DNA from: a virus
Lineage: Duplodnaviria > Caudoviricetes
Virus record (IMG/VR): IMGVR_UViG_3300037310_000131
Location: 9,446 to 73,445 of that record
Length of the DNA stretch: 64,000 nt
Strand: one strand, 5' to 3'
Position 1 is the first letter of the stretch; each line of letters opens with the position of its first letter. The notes under the pieces were generated by a model that was given only the letters and a program-made list of their open reading frames with translations, was not told the origin of the DNA and did not search any database. Of this stretch, positions 796-5,418 are shown in pieces. Position numbers and translations under genes: made by a program.

Positions 796-870
796 GCCTC
801 AGTGATGTAGGAGTAAACATACGTCGTTGCCAACGATGATACCAGAGTGCGAATCTCTGCTGGGGCACCA
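796..870 (+). tRNA. tRNA-Gly(GCC)
   Basis: Cloverleaf; loop TT-GCC-AA; T-loop TGCGAAT; CCA. Confidence 0.9.
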
Positions 871-875
871 ATTTC

Positions 876-950
876 GGGTCGCAAGCATTTCAAGCGATGC
901 GCTAGGCTTTTACCCTTGAGAACTCGGGGCAGTACCGAGGCGACCCACCA
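876..950 (+). tRNA. tRNA-Lys(TTT)
   Basis: Acceptor GGGTCGC/GCGACCC; loop CT-TTT-AC; T-loop GGCAGTA; CCA. Confidence 0.88.
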
Positions 951-956
951 ATTTAT

Positions 957-1031
957 CGCGACTGACCAAGCAAGCGCATGGGCCTGCCCGCAAAGCAGTG
1001 AAGCCGGGAGCGTTACCCGGAGTCGCGTCCA
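957..1031 (+). tRNA. tRNA-Cys(GCA)
   Basis: Acceptor CGCGACT/AGTCGCG; U73; loop CC-GCA-AA; CCA. Confidence 0.85.
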
Positions 1032-1069
1032 CTTAGTTGCCAGTTTGGTATTCAACTGCAACCTTCACC

Positions 1070-1142
1070 TGGGGAGAGGCGCAGGCTCGAATCCTGCACT
1101 GGGGTAAAATCTCAGTTCGTATAGCGGATAGTATACTCCCTG
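1070..1142 (+). ncRNA. Circularly permuted tRNA-like element
   Basis: Order is T-arm (GCAGG-CTCGAAT-CCTGC), loop-closed acceptor (ACTGGGGT-AAA-ATCTCAGT), D-arm (GTAT/ATAC); TGGGG pairs with CCCTG. Confidence 0.65.
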
Positions 1143-1257
1143 CTCCAGCTATAGGCGACACAATGCCACTCAGTCTTGTAAGAAAAGCGCAGCAGTTTTT
1201 CTTACATGGTGCTCACGAAAGTTGTGCGACAGCCGGGAGAGACCGACACCTGAACAT

Positions 1258-1334
1258 GGGCCAAAAGCATTGTTGGTAATGCGCCTCCTTTGCACGGAGA
1301 ATGCTGGCGGGTTCGACTCCCCCTTGGTCCACCA
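1258..1334 (+). tRNA. tRNA-Ala(TGC)
   Basis: G3:U70; loop TT-TGC-AC; T-loop TTCGACT; CCA. Confidence 0.9.
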
Positions 1335-1339
1335 ATTTC

Positions 1340-1415
1340 GTGCGCGTGGCTCATATAGCTGAGCACCATCCTTCCAAGCTGGCCCAAGCAGGTGCAAGTC
1401 CTGTCGCGCACTCCA
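1340..1415 (+). tRNA. tRNA-Gly(TCC)
   Basis: Acceptor GTGCGCG/CGCGCAC; loop CT-TCC-AA; CCA. Confidence 0.88.
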
Positions 1416-1418
1416 TTT

Positions 1419-1478
1419 GGTCCTGCGGGCACTGCCGCCCGCTCCCCTCGGGGGCACCTGAAAGAACAGGTCTGGACC
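1419..1478 (+). ncRNA. 60-nt four-way-junction RNA of unknown family
   Basis: Stems GGTCC/GGACC, GCGGGC/GCCCGC, CCCC/GGGG and CCTG/CAGG. Confidence 0.45.
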
Positions 1479-1486
1479 CCCTTTTT

Positions 1487-1573
1487 CCAGTCGTGCCAGA
1501 GCAGCAATTGGAGTGCGCTGTAAACGCATTGCCCCAGCGGGCTACATAGGTGCAAGTCCTTTCGACTGGACCA
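1487..1573 (+). tRNA. tRNA-Tyr(GTA) with C1:G72
   Basis: Acceptor CCAGTCG/CGACTGG; loop CT-GTA-AA; long variable arm; CCA. Confidence 0.88.
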
Positions 1574-1579
1574 CTTCAT

Positions 1580-1656
1580 TGTCTCGTAGCTCAGATAGTC
1601 AGAGCGCCCGCTTGATAAGCGGTAGGTCGTCGGTGCGAAACCGACCGGGACAACCA
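1580..1656 (+). tRNA. tRNA-Ile(GAT)
   Basis: Loop TT-GAT-AA; acceptor TGTCTCG/CGGGACA; CCA. Confidence 0.9.
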
Positions 1657-1657
1657 T

Positions 1658-1975
1658 TTACACCACGACAATTCCTTCACGGATTTCGTGATGGCAGTTC
1701 GAGCAAACCAAAACACGCTTCTTGGCTTCTTCTAAAAGAGCCTCAAAGTTCTGGCCATGACCCTTGGTAGGGATGCCAAGTGACCTTTGTTGTGGGTCGC
1801 GGTGGTGAAAGTGAAGTGCAGATATGCAGGTTTTGTAGCCACAAGCACTGCGCTCGCCGCCAAATAGAGCAACAAGCCGTTGCTTGTTCTTGAGCCTGTT
1901 TACCTTGATATGTGCGTAGTTCCCTGTGCGTTTCTTTGAACCACCGGGAGCGGTAATAACTTTTGAAATAGACAT
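1658..1975 (-). CDS. HNH endonuclease (homing-like) inside the tRNA array
   Basis: ACGY...ALHFHHRDP...LVCSNCHHEI; two expected Cys appear substituted. Confidence 0.75.
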   Translation of the reverse strand: MSISKVITAPGGSKKRTGNYAHIKVNRLKNKQRLVALFGGERSACGYKTCISALHFHHRDPQQRSLGIPTKGHGQNFEALLEEAKKRVLVCSNCHHEIREGIVVV

Positions 1976-2010
1976 AGCTAATCAAATGACGATTAGCATG
2001 GTCTGTCGAT

Positions 2011-2082
2011 AGGGCCGTGGCGAAGTCGCCAAGCAGAACTCCAAATCCTGTTATGGGAGCGCAATACTCTCCGGCTCTGCCA
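2011..2082 (+). tRNA. tRNA-Trp(CCA), reduced D-arm
   Basis: Acceptor AGGGCCG/CGGCTCT; loop CT-CCA-AA; CCA. Confidence 0.8.
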
Positions 2083-2088
2083 ATTTAT

Positions 2089-2199
2089 GTTAGAGATAGC
2101 AGTCACAGCGTACGTCGCGTTCTGGATGATCCTTCTTCCGGCGCGGCGTAAGAACTAGCAAATCAACAGGGCGAGCGGCCCACTCCGCCGCCCTTTAAC
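2089..2199 (+). ncRNA. Structured RNA of unknown family
   Basis: Closing stem GTTAGAG/CTTTAAC, long hairpin TACGTCGCG/CGCGGCGTA and hairpin GGGCG/CGCCC. Confidence 0.45.
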
Positions 2200-2204
2200 T
2201 TTCT

Positions 2205-2279
2205 GGGCGTGTAGCTGAGATAGATTAGCGCGTGTCTGAAGAACACGAGACGCTGGAGCGTTACCAGCCTAGCCCACCA
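2205..2279 (+). tRNA. tRNA-Phe(GAA)
   Basis: Loop CT-GAA-GA; two acceptor mismatches; CCA. Confidence 0.8.
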
Positions 2280-2284
2280 CTTTA

Positions 2285-2356
2285 TGCCGGGAGCTTCGGA
2301 AGCCGGCAAGGCTCATACCCTTGTCGAAGCACGTTCGACCCGTGCCCCAGCACCCA
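2285..2356 (+). tRNA. tRNA with CAT anticodon (Met or Ile2), tiny D-loop
   Basis: CAAGG-CT-CAT-AC-CCTTG; T-arm GCACG-TTCGACC-CGTGC; CCA. Confidence 0.7.
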
Positions 2357-2425
2357 TTTGGGCCAACGCAGTGAAAAGTACCGAAATGCCAAAGTAGCGA
2401 AAATCGAGTCGTTGTGCCCATTTAT

Positions 2426-2501
2426 CCATCCGAAGTGTTATCTGGTTGCACGTTCCGTTTGGGGCGGAATTGTCTCGGTTCAAATCCGGGCGGGTGGACC
2501 A
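2426..2501 (+). tRNA. tRNA-Pro(TGG)
   Basis: TTCCG-TT-TGG-GG-CGGAA; CCA. Confidence 0.88.
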
Positions 2502-2507
2502 CTTTAT

Positions 2508-2582
2508 GGGGCTATGGAGTAGTGGTAACTACAGCGCACTGTCCATGCGCAGTCCGGGGTTCGATTCCCCGTAGCCTCGCCA
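2508..2582 (+). tRNA. tRNA-Asp(GTC)
   Basis: GCGCA-CT-GTC-CA-TGCGC; G73; CCA. Confidence 0.9.
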
Positions 2583-2587
2583 TTTAT

Positions 2588-2663
2588 GCGCGATTAGAAT
2601 AGCGGCTAATTCGACAGTCCTACACACTGTTCATCGGGGGTTCGAGTCCCTCATTGCGCACCA
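2588..2663 (+). tRNA. tRNA-Val(TAC)
   Basis: ACAGT-CC-TAC-AC-ACTGT; CCA. Confidence 0.88.
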
Positions 2664-2688
2664 CTTTATTGTTGACTGCGTATATCTG

Positions 2689-2862
2689 GTGTGTACTGAA
2701 ACATGGATTAGTTGCCATATAGATAAAACCTTGCACAAGAACGGACAATGCCGGGCAACACATGGCAAAATAAGGTGTTATCAAAACGGATGCAGGTGCG
2801 AAAGGTGTCGCGCAGCAAACGCAGAGCGTTCTAGAATTTATAGAGCAAAGTCTTTATTGTAG
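2689..2862 (+). pseudogene. C-terminal remnant of an HNH-type endonuclease
   Basis: Frame reads VCTETWISCHIDKT...THGKIRCYQNGCRCERCRAAN, resembling the CxxCH-KT and HG-GCRC tail of phage HNH proteins; N-terminus absent. Confidence 0.5.
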
Positions 2863-2933
2863 AGAAGGCAAATGGCTAGCCGGTTGTCTGTTAAACAACG
2901 TCGTTGATAGTTCGATTCTATCCTCTACAGCCA
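2858..2933 (+). tRNA. tRNA-Asn(GTT)
   Basis: GTTGT-CT-GTT-AA-ACAAC; G73; CCA. Confidence 0.9.
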
Positions 2934-2937
2934 CTTC

Positions 2938-3012
2938 GGGTCGGTAGCTCAGCGGTAGAGCGTTCGATTGTTAATCGAATGGTCATTGGTTCAATCCCAA
3001 TCCGTCCCTCCA
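2938..3012 (+). tRNA. tRNA-Asn(GTT), second copy
   Basis: TTCGA-TT-GTT-AA-TCGAA; U73; CCA. Confidence 0.85.
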
Positions 3013-3013
3013 G

Positions 3014-3089
3014 CCCCGCTTAGCTCAGCAGTTAGAGCGTCTGCCTGACATGCAGAAGGCGGCTGGCGCGACACCAGCAGCGGGGACCA
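3014..3089 (+). tRNA. tRNA-Val(GAC)
   Basis: TCTGC-CT-GAC-AT-GCAGA; CCA. Confidence 0.9.
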
Positions 3090-3090
3090 T

Positions 3091-3166
3091 CGGAGCCTAG
3101 CCTAGCGGTTGAGGCACTTGTTTCGGGAACAAGACGAGGCGAGTTCGACTCTCGCGGCTCCGACCA
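3091..3166 (+). tRNA. tRNA-Pro(CGG)
   Basis: CTTGT-TT-CGG-GA-ACAAG; CCA. Confidence 0.92.
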
Positions 3167-3172
3167 TTTTAT

Positions 3173-3248
3173 GGACCATTGGTGTAGCGGCACTGCACGT
3201 CGAGCTTTGAACTCGAAGGTCTTGGGTCAGCACCAAGATGGTCTGCCA
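3173..3248 (+). tRNA. tRNA-Gln(TTG)
   Basis: TCGAG-CT-TTG-AA-CTCGA; CCA. Confidence 0.88.
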
Positions 3249-3253
3249 ATTTC

Positions 3254-3327
3254 CGCCCTCTGGTGTAGTAGTAGCACCACGGATTCTGAACCCGTTAGTC
3301 TTGGAGCGTAACCAAGGGGGGCGGCCA
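3254..3327 (+). tRNA. tRNA-Gln(CTG)
   Basis: ACGGA-TT-CTG-AA-CCCGT; CCA. Confidence 0.87.
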
Positions 3328-3390
3328 TTTTAGTCTCGCGTACCATGAGTACAAGGAGCAACGGCCCCGTATTTTTGCGCGGCCAGCCAA

Positions 3391-3610
3391 TTTCCAGCAG
3401 GAGCGCATTCGCTGTTCGCAAATTGCGAATGGAGGAAGTTCGCGTCTGCGCAACACACCGAGGCAGGGCTTGTTCTTTGGTTCAAGTCCGCTATGACCTC
3501 ATGGTAGCAGCAACCCAAACAGACTGAGGATGAGTGTTGTCCTGCGATGTCGGGTTGGGGCTTAGACAAATGAATGCGGTCAACAGAAACGCGGCTACGT
3601 CCACTGGAAA
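3391..3610 (+). ncRNA. rnpB: Minimal RNase P RNA (catalytic domain with vestigial S-domain)
   Basis: CR-I GAGGAAGTTCGCGT and CR-V ACAGAAACGCGGCT form P4; P1, P2, P3, P5, P6, P15-P17, the L15 GGT and CR-IV TAGACAAATG can all be drawn. Confidence 0.85.
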
Positions 3611-3617
3611 AATTTTT

Positions 3618-3692
3618 GGAAGCGAAGCCACAGTAGACGGGCACCCGGCTCTTACCCGGATTTCGTGAGGCTGCGACTGCCTCCGCTTCCAC
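3618..3692 (+). tRNA. tRNA-Lys(CTT)
   Basis: Acceptor GGAAGCG/CGCTTCC; loop CT-CTT-AC; CCA. Confidence 0.87.
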
Positions 3693-3696
3693 CACC

Positions 3697-3753
3697 TTCC
3701 AGTCAAGATGCCGTAAACTCACAGTGTGTGTTCGGGACCTTCATCTTGGCTGG
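3697..3753 (+). ncRNA. Long hairpin RNA of unknown family
   Basis: 12-bp stem CCAGTCAAGATG/CATCTTGGCTGG with inner pairing. Confidence 0.4.
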
Positions 3754-3760
3754 GTTCTTT

Positions 3761-3832
3761 GGCCGGTGATTCAGCAATCCACAGGGTTTCATAAGCCCAG
3801 TGAATCGGGGGCAGCACCCGGACCAGCCACCA
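3761..3832 (+). tRNA. tRNA with CAT anticodon (Met or Ile2), short D-arm
   Basis: AGGGT-TT-CAT-AA-GCCCA; T-loop GGCAGCA; CCA. Confidence 0.72.
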
Positions 3833-3836
3833 ATTT

Positions 3837-3912
3837 GCCTGTGAAGTTCATATAGCTGAACGTGTCCTTGGTAAGGACAATGCAGCGGGTGCAAGTCCCG
3901 CCTCAGGCTCCA
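3837..3912 (+). tRNA. tRNA-Thr(GGT)
   Basis: TGTCC-TT-GGT-AA-GGACA; CCA. Confidence 0.9.
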
Positions 3913-3913
3913 T

Positions 3914-3996
3914 GGGCGCGTGGTTAACTACGAATAGCAGAGTATTCTGCCTTAGAAGCAGACAGCCTTGGGGGTGCAAGTCCCTCCGCGCCTACC
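3914..3996 (+). tRNA. tRNA-Leu(TAG)
   Basis: TCTGC-CT-TAG-AA-GCAGA; A73; CCA. Confidence 0.82.
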
Positions 3997-4004
3997 AATT
4001 TCAT

Positions 4005-4079
4005 GGCCCAATCGACAACCAGCTAAGTCACTGCGCTTTCAACGCGGAGTACCGGGGGCAGCACCCGGTTGGGCTACCA
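4005..4079 (+). tRNA. tRNA-Glu(TTC)
   Basis: CTGCG-CT-TTC-AA-CGCGG; CCA. Confidence 0.87.
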
Positions 4080-4085
4080 CTTCAT

Positions 4086-4160
4086 GGCCGCATCGTATAG
4101 AAGTCAGTACGCTGCCCTCTCAAGGCAGGAACCCCGGAGCGTTACCGGGTGCGGCTACCA
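4086..4160 (+). tRNA. tRNA-Glu(CTC)
   Basis: CTGCC-CT-CTC-AA-GGCAG; CCA. Confidence 0.88.
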
Positions 4161-4163
4161 TTT

Positions 4164-4248
4164 CGCCAACTGGATGGAATAGCAGACACGGGGCACTCAA
4201 AACGCCCTGCCGAAAGGCGTCCCGGTGCAAGTCCGGGGTTGGCGACCA
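4164..4248 (+). tRNA. tRNA-Leu(CAA)
   Basis: Loop CT-CAA-AA; long variable arm; CCA. Confidence 0.87.
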
Positions 4249-4249
4249 C

Positions 4250-4342
4250 GGTCCCGTGGTGTAATGTTAGCACCGCTAGTTTTATAAACTGGGCGCACTA
4301 GATTGGTGCCGTGTGCTGGTTCAAGTCCAGCCGGGACTACCA
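4250..4342 (+). tRNA. tRNA with TAT anticodon (Ile-AUA) and long variable arm
   Basis: CTAGT-TT-TAT-AA-ACTGG; variable hairpin GCACTA/TGGTGC; acceptor GGTCCCG/CGGGACT; A73; CCA. Confidence 0.8.
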
Positions 4343-4346
4343 CTTT

Positions 4347-4421
4347 GGTCTGTAAGTGTTGAGAGATACACGCGGCTTTCGTAAAGCTGAATACTCGGAG
4401 CGTTACCGAGACGGACCTCCA
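4347..4421 (+). tRNA. tRNA-Thr(CGT)
   Basis: CGGCT-TT-CGT-AA-AGCTG; CCA. Confidence 0.88.
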
Positions 4422-4425
4422 TTTT

Positions 4426-4501
4426 GTTCTGCAAGCATTGCTGGCGATGCGGCTGCCTTGTAAGCAGCAGATAGTCGGTTCGATTCCGGCGCGGAACTCC
4501 A
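4426..4501 (+). tRNA. tRNA-Thr(TGT)
   Basis: GCTGC-CT-TGT-AA-GCAGC; CCA. Confidence 0.9.
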
Positions 4502-4502
4502 T

Positions 4503-4580
4503 CAGGAGCAGTAGTGTAACCGGCAAACACAGGAGCCTGTGAAGCTCCGGTAGAGAGTTCGAGCCTCTCCCTCCTGACCA
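4503..4580 (+). tRNA. tRNA-His(GTG), atypical acceptor
   Basis: GGAGC-CT-GTG-AA-GCTCC; A73, no genomic G-1, 2-nt bulge in the acceptor; CCA. Confidence 0.75.
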
Positions 4581-4584
4581 CTTT

Positions 4585-4660
4585 GCAAGACTCGGCAATG
4601 GATAGTCAGTCTCCCCGCGAAGGAGGTTTAGTCCCAGTTCAAGTCTGGGGTCTTGCGCCA
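4585..4660 (+). tRNA. tRNA-Arg(GCG)
   Basis: TCTCC-CC-GCG-AA-GGAGG; CCA. Confidence 0.83.
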
Positions 4661-4754
4661 TTTGCTTGACACAGATACCGATATTACAAATGCCGTTGCG
4701 AACTGTGTAGAAAAGCGTCTACAGAGGCGTCAAGGAAATGGAGACAATCACTTT

Positions 4755-4830
4755 GTCGCGTTCAGCCAAGCAGACAGGCGCTGGTCTTCTAAGCCAAGCA
4801 ATGCGGGTGCAACTCCTGCACGCGGCACCA
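4755..4830 (+). tRNA. tRNA-Arg(TCT)
   Basis: Loop CT-TCT-AA; acceptor GTCGCGT/ACGCGGC; CCA. Confidence 0.86.
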
Positions 4831-4833
4831 TTT

Positions 4834-4908
4834 GCTCCATTCGTCCAATGTATAGGGCCTGCGTCTTCGGAACGCATGATGAGGGTTAGATTCCTTCATG
4901 GAGCGCCA
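4834..4908 (+). tRNA. tRNA-Arg(TCG)
   Basis: TGCGT-CT-TCG-GA-ACGCA; T-loop TTAGATT; CCA. Confidence 0.87.
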
Positions 4909-4909
4909 C

Positions 4910-4985
4910 TTTCTCGTAGCCTAAGGGATAGGCCCCGGTTTCCTAAACCGTGCGCATGCAGGTTCGAGTCCTGTCGAGAAAGCCA
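4910..4985 (+). tRNA. tRNA-Arg(CCT)
   Basis: CCGGT-TT-CCT-AA-ACCGT; CCA. Confidence 0.88.
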
Positions 4986-4989
4986 CTTC

Positions 4990-5057
4990 GGGCCAAATAC
5001 AGATTCGATTGGTCCTTCGGGCCCAAGACGCGGGGGCGGTGCCCGCTTGGTCCACCA
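4990..5057 (+). ncRNA. ssrA: Mini-tmRNA (tRNA-like domain only)
   Basis: Acceptor GGGCCAA/TTGGTCC with G3:U70, A73 and CCA; stemless D-loop ending GATTCGA; GAC-GCGGG...CCCGC T-arm; P2 capped by cUUCGg. Confidence 0.8.
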
Positions 5058-5061
5058 CTTT

Positions 5062-5147
5062 GGAGACGCAATCCAGCAGGGCTGGAACGGGCCTTGAAAA
5101 CCCAGTGACGCGCAAGCGTTGGGATTCGACTTCTCGCGTCTCCGCCA
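5062..5147 (+). tRNA. tRNA-Ser(TGA)
   Basis: Loop CT-TGA-AA; long variable arm; G73; CCA. Confidence 0.85.
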
Positions 5148-5148
5148 C

Positions 5149-5236
5149 GGAGGGTGAACTGCTCAGGGAGCAGGGCGCTCTGGAAAGGCGTACGCCCGGT
5201 CAACCGGGTGGGTTTCGATTACTCCTCCCTCCGCCA
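5149..5236 (+). tRNA. tRNA-Ser(GGA)
   Basis: Loop CT-GGA-AA; long variable arm; CCA. Confidence 0.87.
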
Positions 5237-5240
5237 CTTT

Positions 5241-5326
5241 GGAAGCAACTGAGGGCAGTTCCTCAACCGGCCTCGAAACCCGGAGTGCCCGCAAGGGCAA
5301 TGGCGCAACTCCATTTGCTTCCGCCA
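5241..5326 (+). tRNA. tRNA-Ser(CGA)
   Basis: Loop CT-CGA-AA; long variable arm; CCA. Confidence 0.85.
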
Positions 5327-5327
5327 T

Positions 5328-5418
5328 GGTGAGTTAAGCAGCCGAGGCGCTGCCGGGGTTTGCTAAACCCTTGGACCGGCTAGCCCCGGTTGTGTGGCAG
5401 GAACACAACTCACCGCCA
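5328..5418 (+). tRNA. tRNA-Ser(GCT)
   Basis: GGGGT-TT-GCT-AA-ACCCT; long variable arm; CCA. Confidence 0.87.

Follow-up and report, generated by a model that had tools for sequence, protein, structure and literature searches.

We analyzed a 64,000-nucleotide (nt) window, bases 9446-73445 of the 73,445-base viral contig IMGVR_UViG_3300037310_000131 in the IMG/VR database, which has an estimated completeness of 81% and about 60% G+C. Positions 796-5418 of the window hold a small-RNA island of 4.6 kb with 38 transfer RNA (tRNA) genes and one tRNA-like element, all on the plus strand and each with a CCA encoded at its 3′ end. An RNase H gene lies upstream of the island, and HNH and DnaB genes lie downstream. 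With 36 different anticodons, the tRNA genes serve all 20 amino acids; at 38 in 4.6 kb they also exceed the 20 tandem genes per viral genome above which an array is classed as a long phage array. In 21 of them the elbow residues G18 of the D-loop and U55 of the T-loop are exchanged together for A18 and G55. Only two sequencing runs match the locus, both of them freshwater metagenome DNA and possibly the source of the contig.

Because an encoded CCA, with a short (A/C)TTT-like spacer after it, closes every element, we anchored the tRNA parse on this CCA and required an acceptor stem of 7 base pairs (bp), a T-stem of 5 bp and a T-loop of 7 nt; counts and statistics are hand calculations. In nearly every gene the CCA is followed by (A/C)TT(T/C) and 0-4 bases before the next gene, a uniform processing context common to both elbow types. 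ARAGORN with default settings called 24/38 of these tRNAs and about 26/38 reached the Rfam gathering score; standard annotation thus under-reports such genes.

The initial annotation, made from the sequence alone, had counted 23 of the 38 tRNAs without TTC at positions 54-56, 21 of them with G55, and the CCA-anchored parse returned the same counts. Its further claims, that the G55 tRNAs carry AG at positions 18/19 and that almost all TTC tRNAs keep GG, also held: A-G is found in 21/21 of the G55 tRNAs, counting an ambiguous tRNA-Ser(GCT) whose D-loop CGAGGC can be read in an A-G or a G-G register, and G18 is found in 17/17 of the U55 tRNAs (15 with GG, two with GU). A Fisher test on this table (21, 0; 0, 17) gives 1/C(38,17) = 3.5e-11, which overstates the significance because isoacceptors share ancestry and are not fully independent. 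The separate compensation ascribed to tRNA-Arg(TCG) is likewise present, as its D-loop AATGTATA (G18 U19) is combined with the T-loop TTAGATT (U55 A56), giving an outer pair U19-A56 in place of G19-C56. A further exception at 19:56 is tRNA-Ile(TAT), with U19 opposite C56. The outer pair G19-C56 is present in 21/21 of the G55 tRNAs.

The numbering was checked by structural alignment, as the initial annotation had proposed. Infernal alignment to the Rfam tRNA model RF00005, which pairs G18-U55, G19-C56 and T54-A58, sets A under the model G18 and G under the model U55, so that the 18/55 combination reads A/G in the 21 genes. A MAFFT alignment of the elements placed the D-loops in two registers. 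The D-loop numbering is supported by A20, which directly follows positions 18-19 in 4/4 tRNA-Arg genes; A20 is the main determinant for arginyl-tRNA synthetase. The pattern G53-N-[G/T]55-C-R-NNN-C61-N12-CCA recovered 19 G55 tRNAs plus the tRNA-like element and 14 U55 tRNAs from the array, and the five tRNAs that it missed have either a 53:61 pair other than G:C or A56.

The T-loops (positions 54-60) fall into a small number of classes. Nine G55 genes have TGCRANN loops, all with A18 G19: tRNA-Gly(GCC) (796-870, D-loop AGGAGTAA, T-loop TGCGAAT), tRNA-Gly(TCC) (1340-1415, ATATAGCT, TGCAAGT), tRNA-Tyr(GTA) with its long extra arm (1487-1573, AGCAGCAA, TGCAAGT), tRNA-Ile(GAT) (1580-1656, AGATAGTCA, TGCGAAA), tRNA-Lys(CTT) (3618-3694, CAGTAGAC, TGCGACT, with C:G at 53:61), tRNA-Thr(GGT) (3837-3912, ATATAGCT, TGCAAGT), tRNA-Leu(TAG) (3914-3997, D region with GAATAGCAGA, TGCAAGT), tRNA-Leu(CAA) (4164-4248, GAATAGCAGA, TGCAAGT) and tRNA-Arg(TCT) (4755-4830, AAGCAGAC with A20, TGCAACT). 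Three have CGCRANN loops (C54 G55): tRNA-Trp(CCA) (72 nt, 2011-2082, short D hairpin with loop AAGT read as A-G, CGCAATA), tRNA-Val(GAC) (3014-3089, AGCAGTTA with A18 G19, CGCGACA) and tRNA-Ser(CGA) (5241-5326, GGCAGTTC with A18 G19, CGCAACT). The AGCGT(T/A)A class (A54 G55 U58) comprises five genes with A18 G19, namely tRNA-Cys(GCA) (957-1031, GCAAGCGC, AGCGTTA), tRNA-Phe(GAA) (2205-2279, AGATAGAT, AGCGTTA), tRNA-Gln(CTG) (3254-3327, AGTAGTA, AGCGTAA), tRNA-Glu(CTC) (4086-4160, AGAAGTCA, AGCGTTA) and tRNA-Thr(CGT) (4347-4421, TGAGAGAT, AGCGTTA). The GGCAGNA class (G54 G55 G58) has four members: tRNA-Lys(TTT) (876-950, TTCAAGCG with A18 G19, GGCAGTA), which both default ARAGORN and Rfam missed, a tRNA-Met(CAT) of 72 nt (3761-3832, short D hairpin with loop CAGC read as A-G, GGCAGCA), tRNA-Glu(TTC) (4005-4079, ACCAGCTA with A18 G19, GGCAGCA) and tRNA-Ser(GCT) (5328-5418, GGCAGGA).

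The 17 U55 genes comprise 15 with TTCRANN loops and two single cases. GG stands at 18/19 in tRNA-Ala(TGC) (1258-1334, TGTTGGTA, TTCGACT), a canonical tRNA with G3:U70, and in a tRNA-Met(CAT) of 72 nt (2285-2356, short D hairpin with loop CGG, TTCGACC), tRNA-Pro(TGG) (2426-2501, TATCTGGTT, TTCAAAT), tRNA-Asp(GTC) (2508-2582, AGTGGTA, TTCGATT), tRNA-Val(TAC) (2588-2663, AGCGGCTA, TTCGAGT), the two copies of tRNA-Asn(GTT) (copy 1 at 2858-2933, AATGGCT, TTCGATT; copy 2 at 2938-3012, AGCGGTA, TTCAATC), tRNA-Pro(CGG) (3091-3166, AGCGGTTG, TTCGACT), tRNA-Thr(TGT) (4426-4501, TGCTGGCG, TTCGATT), tRNA-His(GTG) (4503-4580, AACCGGCAA, TTCGAGC), tRNA-Arg(GCG) (4585-4660, AATGGATA with A20, TTCAAGT), tRNA-Arg(CCT) (4910-4985, AAGGGAT with A20, TTCGAGT), tRNA-Ser(TGA) (5062-5147, CAGGG, TTCGACT) and tRNA-Ser(GGA) (5149-5236, CAGGG, TTCGATT). 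The fifteenth, tRNA-Ile(TAT) (4250-4342, AATGTTA with G18 U19, TTCAAGT), is 93 nt long with a 22-nt extra arm; another tRNA-Ile(TAT), of 92 nt, was called in a second viral array (L029:7112-7203). The single cases are tRNA-Gln(TTG) (3173-3248, AGCGGCACT with GG, GTCAGCA), in which 54:58 is changed to G:G while G18/U55 stays, and tRNA-Arg(TCG) (4834-4908, with A20). In the 72-nt Trp and two Met tRNAs the D-arm is a hairpin of 4-5 bp with a loop of only 3-4 nt, and these still follow the rule, with A-G accompanying G55 and G-G accompanying U55.

Covariation extends to the pair that closes the T-loop. Positions 54:58 are U:A in all TTC and TGC loops, C:A in CGC loops, A:U in AGC loops and G:G in GGC and GTC loops, with no mixed combinations, and position 57 is a purine in every tRNA. 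A pair other than U:A occurs in 13 genes, 12/21 of the G55 tRNAs versus 1/17 of the U55 tRNAs (Fisher p ~1e-3). With G55 no pseudouridine can be made at position 55 in 21 tRNAs, and 12 of these also lack U54 and hence 5-methyluridine at that position.

The A18/G55 combination is known from RNAs other than tRNA. A study of flavin mononucleotide (FMN) and cobalamin riboswitches found that non-tRNA T-loops are UGNRA in 88.7% and CGNRA in 10.9% of cases and described a separate ribosomal RNA (rRNA) T-loop type, GGAAG; in FMN riboswitches an A occupies the intercalating slot between loop positions 4 and 5 in 99.96% of cases, hydrogen-bonding twice to the sugar edge of the position-2 G, and the tRNA-type UUCRA loops are functional but weaker in an unmodified context (bioRxiv 10.1101/2022.12.26.521914). 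In tRNA numbering, nucleotide 55 occupies loop position 2 and nucleotide 18 intercalates between 57 and 58 (PMC7912444), so A18/G55 corresponds to the generic T-loop contact set inside a tRNA. The TGCRA (nine) and CGCRA (three) loops of the array fit YGNRA, the GGCAG loops (four) resemble rRNA GGAAG, and A stands at position 18 whenever G stands at 55.

In an ordinary tRNA, G18 slides between R57 and A58 and bonds to U55, present as pseudouridine-55. In the G55 tRNAs, A18 would take the intercalating place and G55 would offer its sugar edge, as in the riboswitch YGNRA T-loops, and the closing 54:58 pair would then be free to be U:A, C:A, A:U or G:G. With G19-C56 in place, the L-shape and the face met by the ribosome, RNase P and T-boxes would stay unchanged. 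The initial annotation had noted that these three partners read the elbow, and our analysis agrees for the outer pair, whose retention in all 21 genes indicates an internal swap for a structurally equivalent contact rather than a redesign of the partner-facing surface. We infer this three-dimensional geometry, and the function in this phage, from the sequences; the covariation, its generality and the sole-copy use of the design in cells, described below, are direct observations.

Comparison with known RNAs places the design more precisely. The array genes share with canonical tRNA (RF00005) the cloverleaf, 7-nt anticodon loops, encoded CCA, identity elements, G19-C56 and G53-C61, and differ by A18 and G55 in 21/38 genes and by C:A, A:U or G:G at 54:58 in 12. 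With the FMN and cobalamin riboswitch T-loops they share the UGNRA and CGNRA classes, the G at position 2 and, as predicted from the covariation, an A inserted between positions 4 and 5, except that here the motif sits in a tRNA and the A would come from a D-loop, beside the G that pairs with C56. The GGCRG loop class matches the consensus T-arm CCGGGGGCgGUACCCGG (loop G54 G55 C56 R57 G58) of the alpha-proteobacterial transfer-messenger RNA (tmRNA) model RF01849, an RNA that acts on the ribosome. This loop occurs in tRNA-Glu(TTC), where the T-arm matches the model consensus, and in tRNA-Lys(TTT), tRNA-Met, tRNA-Ser(GCT) and the tRNA-like element at 4990-5057. Whereas tmRNA has no D-arm and SmpB stands in for the D-arm and anticodon arm, the loop in the array belongs to full tRNAs. 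Animal mitochondrial tRNAs also depart from G18/G19 and T54/pseudouridine-55, but they lose or weaken the contact between D- and T-loops, whereas the array exchanges one defined contact with strict covariation and normal loop sizes in 18/21 genes.

The G55 genes have the features expected of translating tRNAs. Acceptor stems are paired at 7/7 positions in 31 of the 38 tRNAs, at 6/7 in six and at 5/7 in one (Phe), and T-stems at 4-5 of five positions in all 38. Stem sequences vary between genes with an identical loop while pairing stays intact. U33 is present in 20/21 G55 tRNAs (C33 in Cys), and position 37 is A or G in all. Identity elements are largely those expected: G73 in all Ser, Trp and both Gln tRNAs, A73 in Leu, Tyr, Phe and Lys, U73 in Cys, long arms in Tyr, Leu and Ser, and A20 in all four Arg, with U73 instead of the expected G73 in one of the two Asn genes. 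The two designs do not duplicate each other, and their genes add up to a single non-redundant set of 36 anticodons, in which eight amino acids (Gly, Lys, Cys, Tyr, Trp, Phe, Leu and Glu) have G55 genes only and five (Ala, Pro, Asp, Asn and His) have U55 genes only. The initial annotation had attributed the covariation to selection rather than decay, and the perfect 18/55 covariation over 38 genes, the accompanying changes at 54:58 and 19:56, and the preserved stems and identity elements bear this out. Judged from these features, the G55 genes are very likely working tRNAs.

Homologues in cultured phages give instances of the exchange within a recognizable gene. The Leu(CAA) gene is 80% identical to a Leu-like gene of Caulobacter phage CcrColossus, and the loops differ only at the 18/55 positions (GAATGGCAGA/TTCAAGT in CcrColossus, GAATAGCAGA/TGCAAGT in the window). 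For Ile(GAT), Erwinia phage ChrisDB has AGTTGGTCA/TTCAAGT and the window AGATAGTCA/TGCGAAA, with a common acceptor 5′ strand. The tRNA-Phe of the cultured Streptomyces phage Sham (L001:6004-6075), which ARAGORN missed, has A18 with the G55 loop TGCGTTA and shares 39 identical 5′ nt with the window tRNA-Phe at 2205-2279; these follow the acceptor strand, and the acceptor and T arms differ. As Sham is otherwise unrelated, this identity points to transfer. An exact 34-nt tRNA-Phe pattern had no match among IMG/VR viral contigs, blastn of the array against cultured phages returned single-tRNA matches only, and a DnaB-based locus search of IMG/VR viral contigs found no close relatives. The CcrColossus array and the Anabaena trn operon (PMC8421152) resemble the window in having dozens of tandem tRNA genes with short spacers for most or all amino acids, but the tRNAs in the CcrColossus stretch examined are canonical GG/TTC.

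To compare 18/55 pairs between phages and bacteria, a survey that the initial annotation had suggested, we searched for one D-arm type; within that scope A18/G55 was found in both. In IMG/VR we combined TAGCTCAG-N-T-[A/G]G-NN-AGAGC with G53-N-[G/T]55-C-R-NNN-C61 in its four versions. A18/G55 matched 45 contigs, 44 of them with unambiguous A18, and canonical G18/U55 matched more than 117. A18/U55 matched 99 contigs, of which 89 read TAGG (ordinary GG) and 10 are real, well-formed tRNAs; G18/G55 matched five, four of which are not tRNAs on inspection, leaving at most one real case. That A18/U55 is tolerated and G18/G55 almost absent suggests an order of change in which position 18 altered first and 55 followed. 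The viral A18/G55 genes are good tRNAs with many anticodons and mostly an encoded CCA. All sampled loci (8/8) are arrays, with 9-31 tRNAs each, and their contigs measure 99-217 kb; one array (L044) has 18 G55-type versus 7 U55-type T-arms. Additional RNAs occur beside the tRNAs in such arrays (L007:1-137; L030:2595-2723 and 3284-3401; L018:1-407), among them a GOLLD RNA fragment (weak, far below gathering score), weak YrlA-like (Y RNA) matches and tmRNA.

The A18/G55 pattern also matched at least 120 species genomes of cellular organisms. Among the matches listed, most are Patescibacteria (Candidate Phyla Radiation, CPR), with some Endomicrobia, Gammaproteobacteria metagenome-assembled genomes and one Woesearchaeota; in the sampled CPR genomes, a conserved CAT-anticodon tRNA accounts for most of the cases. 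An A18/G55 tRNA-Ile(GAT) lies in the 16S-Ile-Ala-23S spacer of one Endomicrobiaceae chromosome and of two Gammaproteobacteria metagenome-assembled genomes and is the only such gene in each, so the design would work in ordinary bacterial translation, which indirectly supports aminoacylation and translational use of the array tRNAs. All three genomes encode TruB (TruB_N). Six-frame searches found no TruB_N in a 1.2-Mb Saccharibacteria (L275, G001) and a 1.1-Mb Parcubacteria genome (L291, G003), both with 44 tRNAs that are mostly canonical by score. We therefore rejected TruB loss as a general cause: TruB-positive genomes use A18/G55 and CPR genomes without a TruB match are mostly canonical, so loss of the enzyme is neither needed nor sufficient.

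Several further RNAs lie within the array. Between tRNA-Gln and tRNA-Lys, positions 3393-3608 (plus strand) hold a 216-nt match to RNase P RNA (RF00373, 35 bits, E ~1e-8, below gathering score) that keeps the GAGGAAGUUCG and ACAGAA..GGCUAC blocks and lacks almost all of the specificity domain. An RNase P RNA without this elbow-reading module inside an array with altered elbows is suggestive of a link to the swap, but G19-C56 is kept. No RNase P-like match at E ≤ 1e-3 was found in eight other A18/G55 viral loci, a result that says little at 3-12 kb searched per contig. The 68-nt tRNA-like element (4990-5057, plus strand) has an Ala-type acceptor stem (G3:U70, A73, CCA), a T-arm GCGGG-GGCGGTG-CCCGC with G55, a D-loop equivalent that contains A-G and, in place of an anticodon arm and loop, a 7-bp hairpin with one mismatch and a UUCG tetraloop at its tip; the element resembles the tRNA-like domain of tmRNA minus the tag-coding part. 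A second tRNA-like sequence at 1031-1145 (plus strand) lacks CCA; its T-arm is GCAGG-CTCGAAT-CCTGC, and a small loop closes its acceptor-like helix. Positions 2877-2995 give a weak Rfam YrlA match.

Pfam scans near the array identified RNase H, HNH, DnaB, an FkbM methyltransferase and a dGTP diphosphohydrolase-like domain, and found no tRNA-specific modifying or repair enzymes. A 105-amino-acid (aa) open reading frame on the opposite strand inside the array (1658-1975, minus) ends in a CxxC...CxxCH zinc-ribbon or HNH-like motif and may encode a homing-type endonuclease. Upstream of the window, the same contig encodes a 206-aa protein (L002:4558-5178, minus) with a dATP/dGTP diphosphohydrolase N-terminal domain (PF18909, E 2e-10), which hints at manipulation of the deoxynucleoside triphosphate pool or a genome with modified bases.

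We estimate a probability of roughly 0.7 that the 21 G55 genes are working elongator tRNAs whose elbow is locked by the generic T-loop solution. The likeliest benefit, proposed with low confidence, would be an elbow that folds stably without host TruB, TrmA and TrmH during a burst of phage tRNA synthesis. We prefer modification-independence, which the initial annotation had raised alongside nuclease escape, because riboswitch UGNRA loops outperform UUCRA loops when unmodified, and because 54:58 varies once U55 is gone, as if the recognition constraints of TrmA and TruB had lapsed. Insensitivity to proteins that read the T-pseudouridine-C sequence could be a side effect. Apparent conversions of Ile and Leu tRNAs in phage lineages, together with G55 majorities in two or more unrelated arrays, speak for a degree of directional pressure. 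A tentative further proposal is that A18/G55 constitutes a second, self-sufficient elbow design that is positively selected in phage arrays, needs no host modification, is blind to T-pseudouridine-C readers and has been reached repeatedly via A18/U55.

A number of observations weigh against the working-tRNA reading and its proposed benefit. No RNA run is among the sequencing runs that match the array locus. Positions 18/19 of the three tRNAs with 3-4-nt D-loops are numbered by analogy only, the AGCGU class (five genes, A54:U58) falls outside the T-loop classes of the riboswitch study, although its positions 1 and 5 are complementary and it has G at position 2 and a purine at 4, and the G55 genes have blemishes in the Phe acceptor stem (5/7 paired) and C33 of Cys. 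The case for a benefit is weak, as TruB-positive bacteria use the design, TruB-less CPR mostly do not, and 17 tRNAs of the array itself are canonical. The G55 genes are also mildly clustered along the array (13 runs versus 19.8 expected, z = -2.3), so shared history or block inheritance accounts for part of the pattern. This last point fits a different explanation, in which A18/G55 is a nearly neutral equivalent that arose through the tolerated A18/U55 and spread by duplication, gene conversion and horizontal transfer of array blocks. The 10 well-formed A18/U55 intermediates in IMG/VR next to almost no G18/G55, the 5′ part of tRNA-Phe shared with an unrelated Streptomyces phage, and the sporadic occurrence in cells point the same way. 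We nonetheless regard near-neutrality as unlikely: majorities of 21/38 here and 18 versus 7 in L044 are hard to explain given the rarity in cells (judged from three genomes with 44 tRNAs each, mostly high-scoring canonical), and the loops are strongly conserved within each G55 class while stems vary.

The initial annotation had inferred escape from elbow-recognising nucleases. Under this explanation, a T-loop-directed host defence, a competitor toxin or the phage's own host-shutoff nuclease would read either the T-pseudouridine-C loop or G18, and the A18/G55 tRNAs would be invisible to it. Such an activity exists, since CdiA-CT of Burkholderia pseudomallei E479 cuts the T-loop between the conserved T and pseudouridine (PMC9086364), and conversion inside phage tRNA lineages seems to have occurred for at least two tRNAs (Ile and Leu); other phage arrays, such as L044, are mostly G55 too. 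Yet Ala, Pro, Asp, Asn and His are served solely by canonical tRNAs, of which the array has 17, so array-wide escape is not achieved and a general T-loop nuclease would halt translation all the same; cells, too, use the design in single housekeeping tRNAs without any evident pressure of this kind. We know of no anti-phage system shown to cut the T-loop, and consider this origin quite improbable. Very much less credible is the possibility that the G55 genes are decayed pseudogenes or non-translational RNAs such as decoys or tRNA-like modules. Low Rfam scores, the many G55 genes missed by ARAGORN and Rfam, the defects in a few genes (Phe acceptor mismatches, Cys C33) and the true tRNA-like non-tRNAs in the array (4990-5057 and 1031-1145) could be read this way, but decay would not leave intact stems with compensated variation, perfect tertiary covariation and retained identity elements, nor would eight amino acids depend on G55 genes alone in an otherwise non-redundant set, nor would A18/G55 serve as the sole tRNA-Ile(GAT) in three bacterial genomes.

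The contact between G18 and pseudouridine-55 is taught as a universal tertiary interaction of tRNA, and a strictly covarying alternative is now seen. Our literature searches, with most subscription journals outside their coverage, found no published description of an A18/G55 variant of tRNA. A 2021 review of T-loop conservation (PMC7912444) does not mention G55 or A18, and the trn-operon paper (PMC8421152) contains no occurrence of T-loop, G18, U55, G55 or elbow. The alternative occurs in 44 viral contigs, counted for a single D-arm type, and in sole-copy housekeeping tRNAs of some bacteria. The elbow has at least two natural solutions, one of which ties tRNA to the wider T-loop motif family and explains why ARAGORN and Rfam under-call this array. 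The G55 genes provide natural templates for tRNAs that TruB or TrmA cannot touch, for use in studies of modification, tRNA quality control and engineered orthogonal tRNAs. If the tentative proposal of a second, positively selected design is correct, G18-pseudouridine-55 would be a frozen cellular habit and not a structural necessity.

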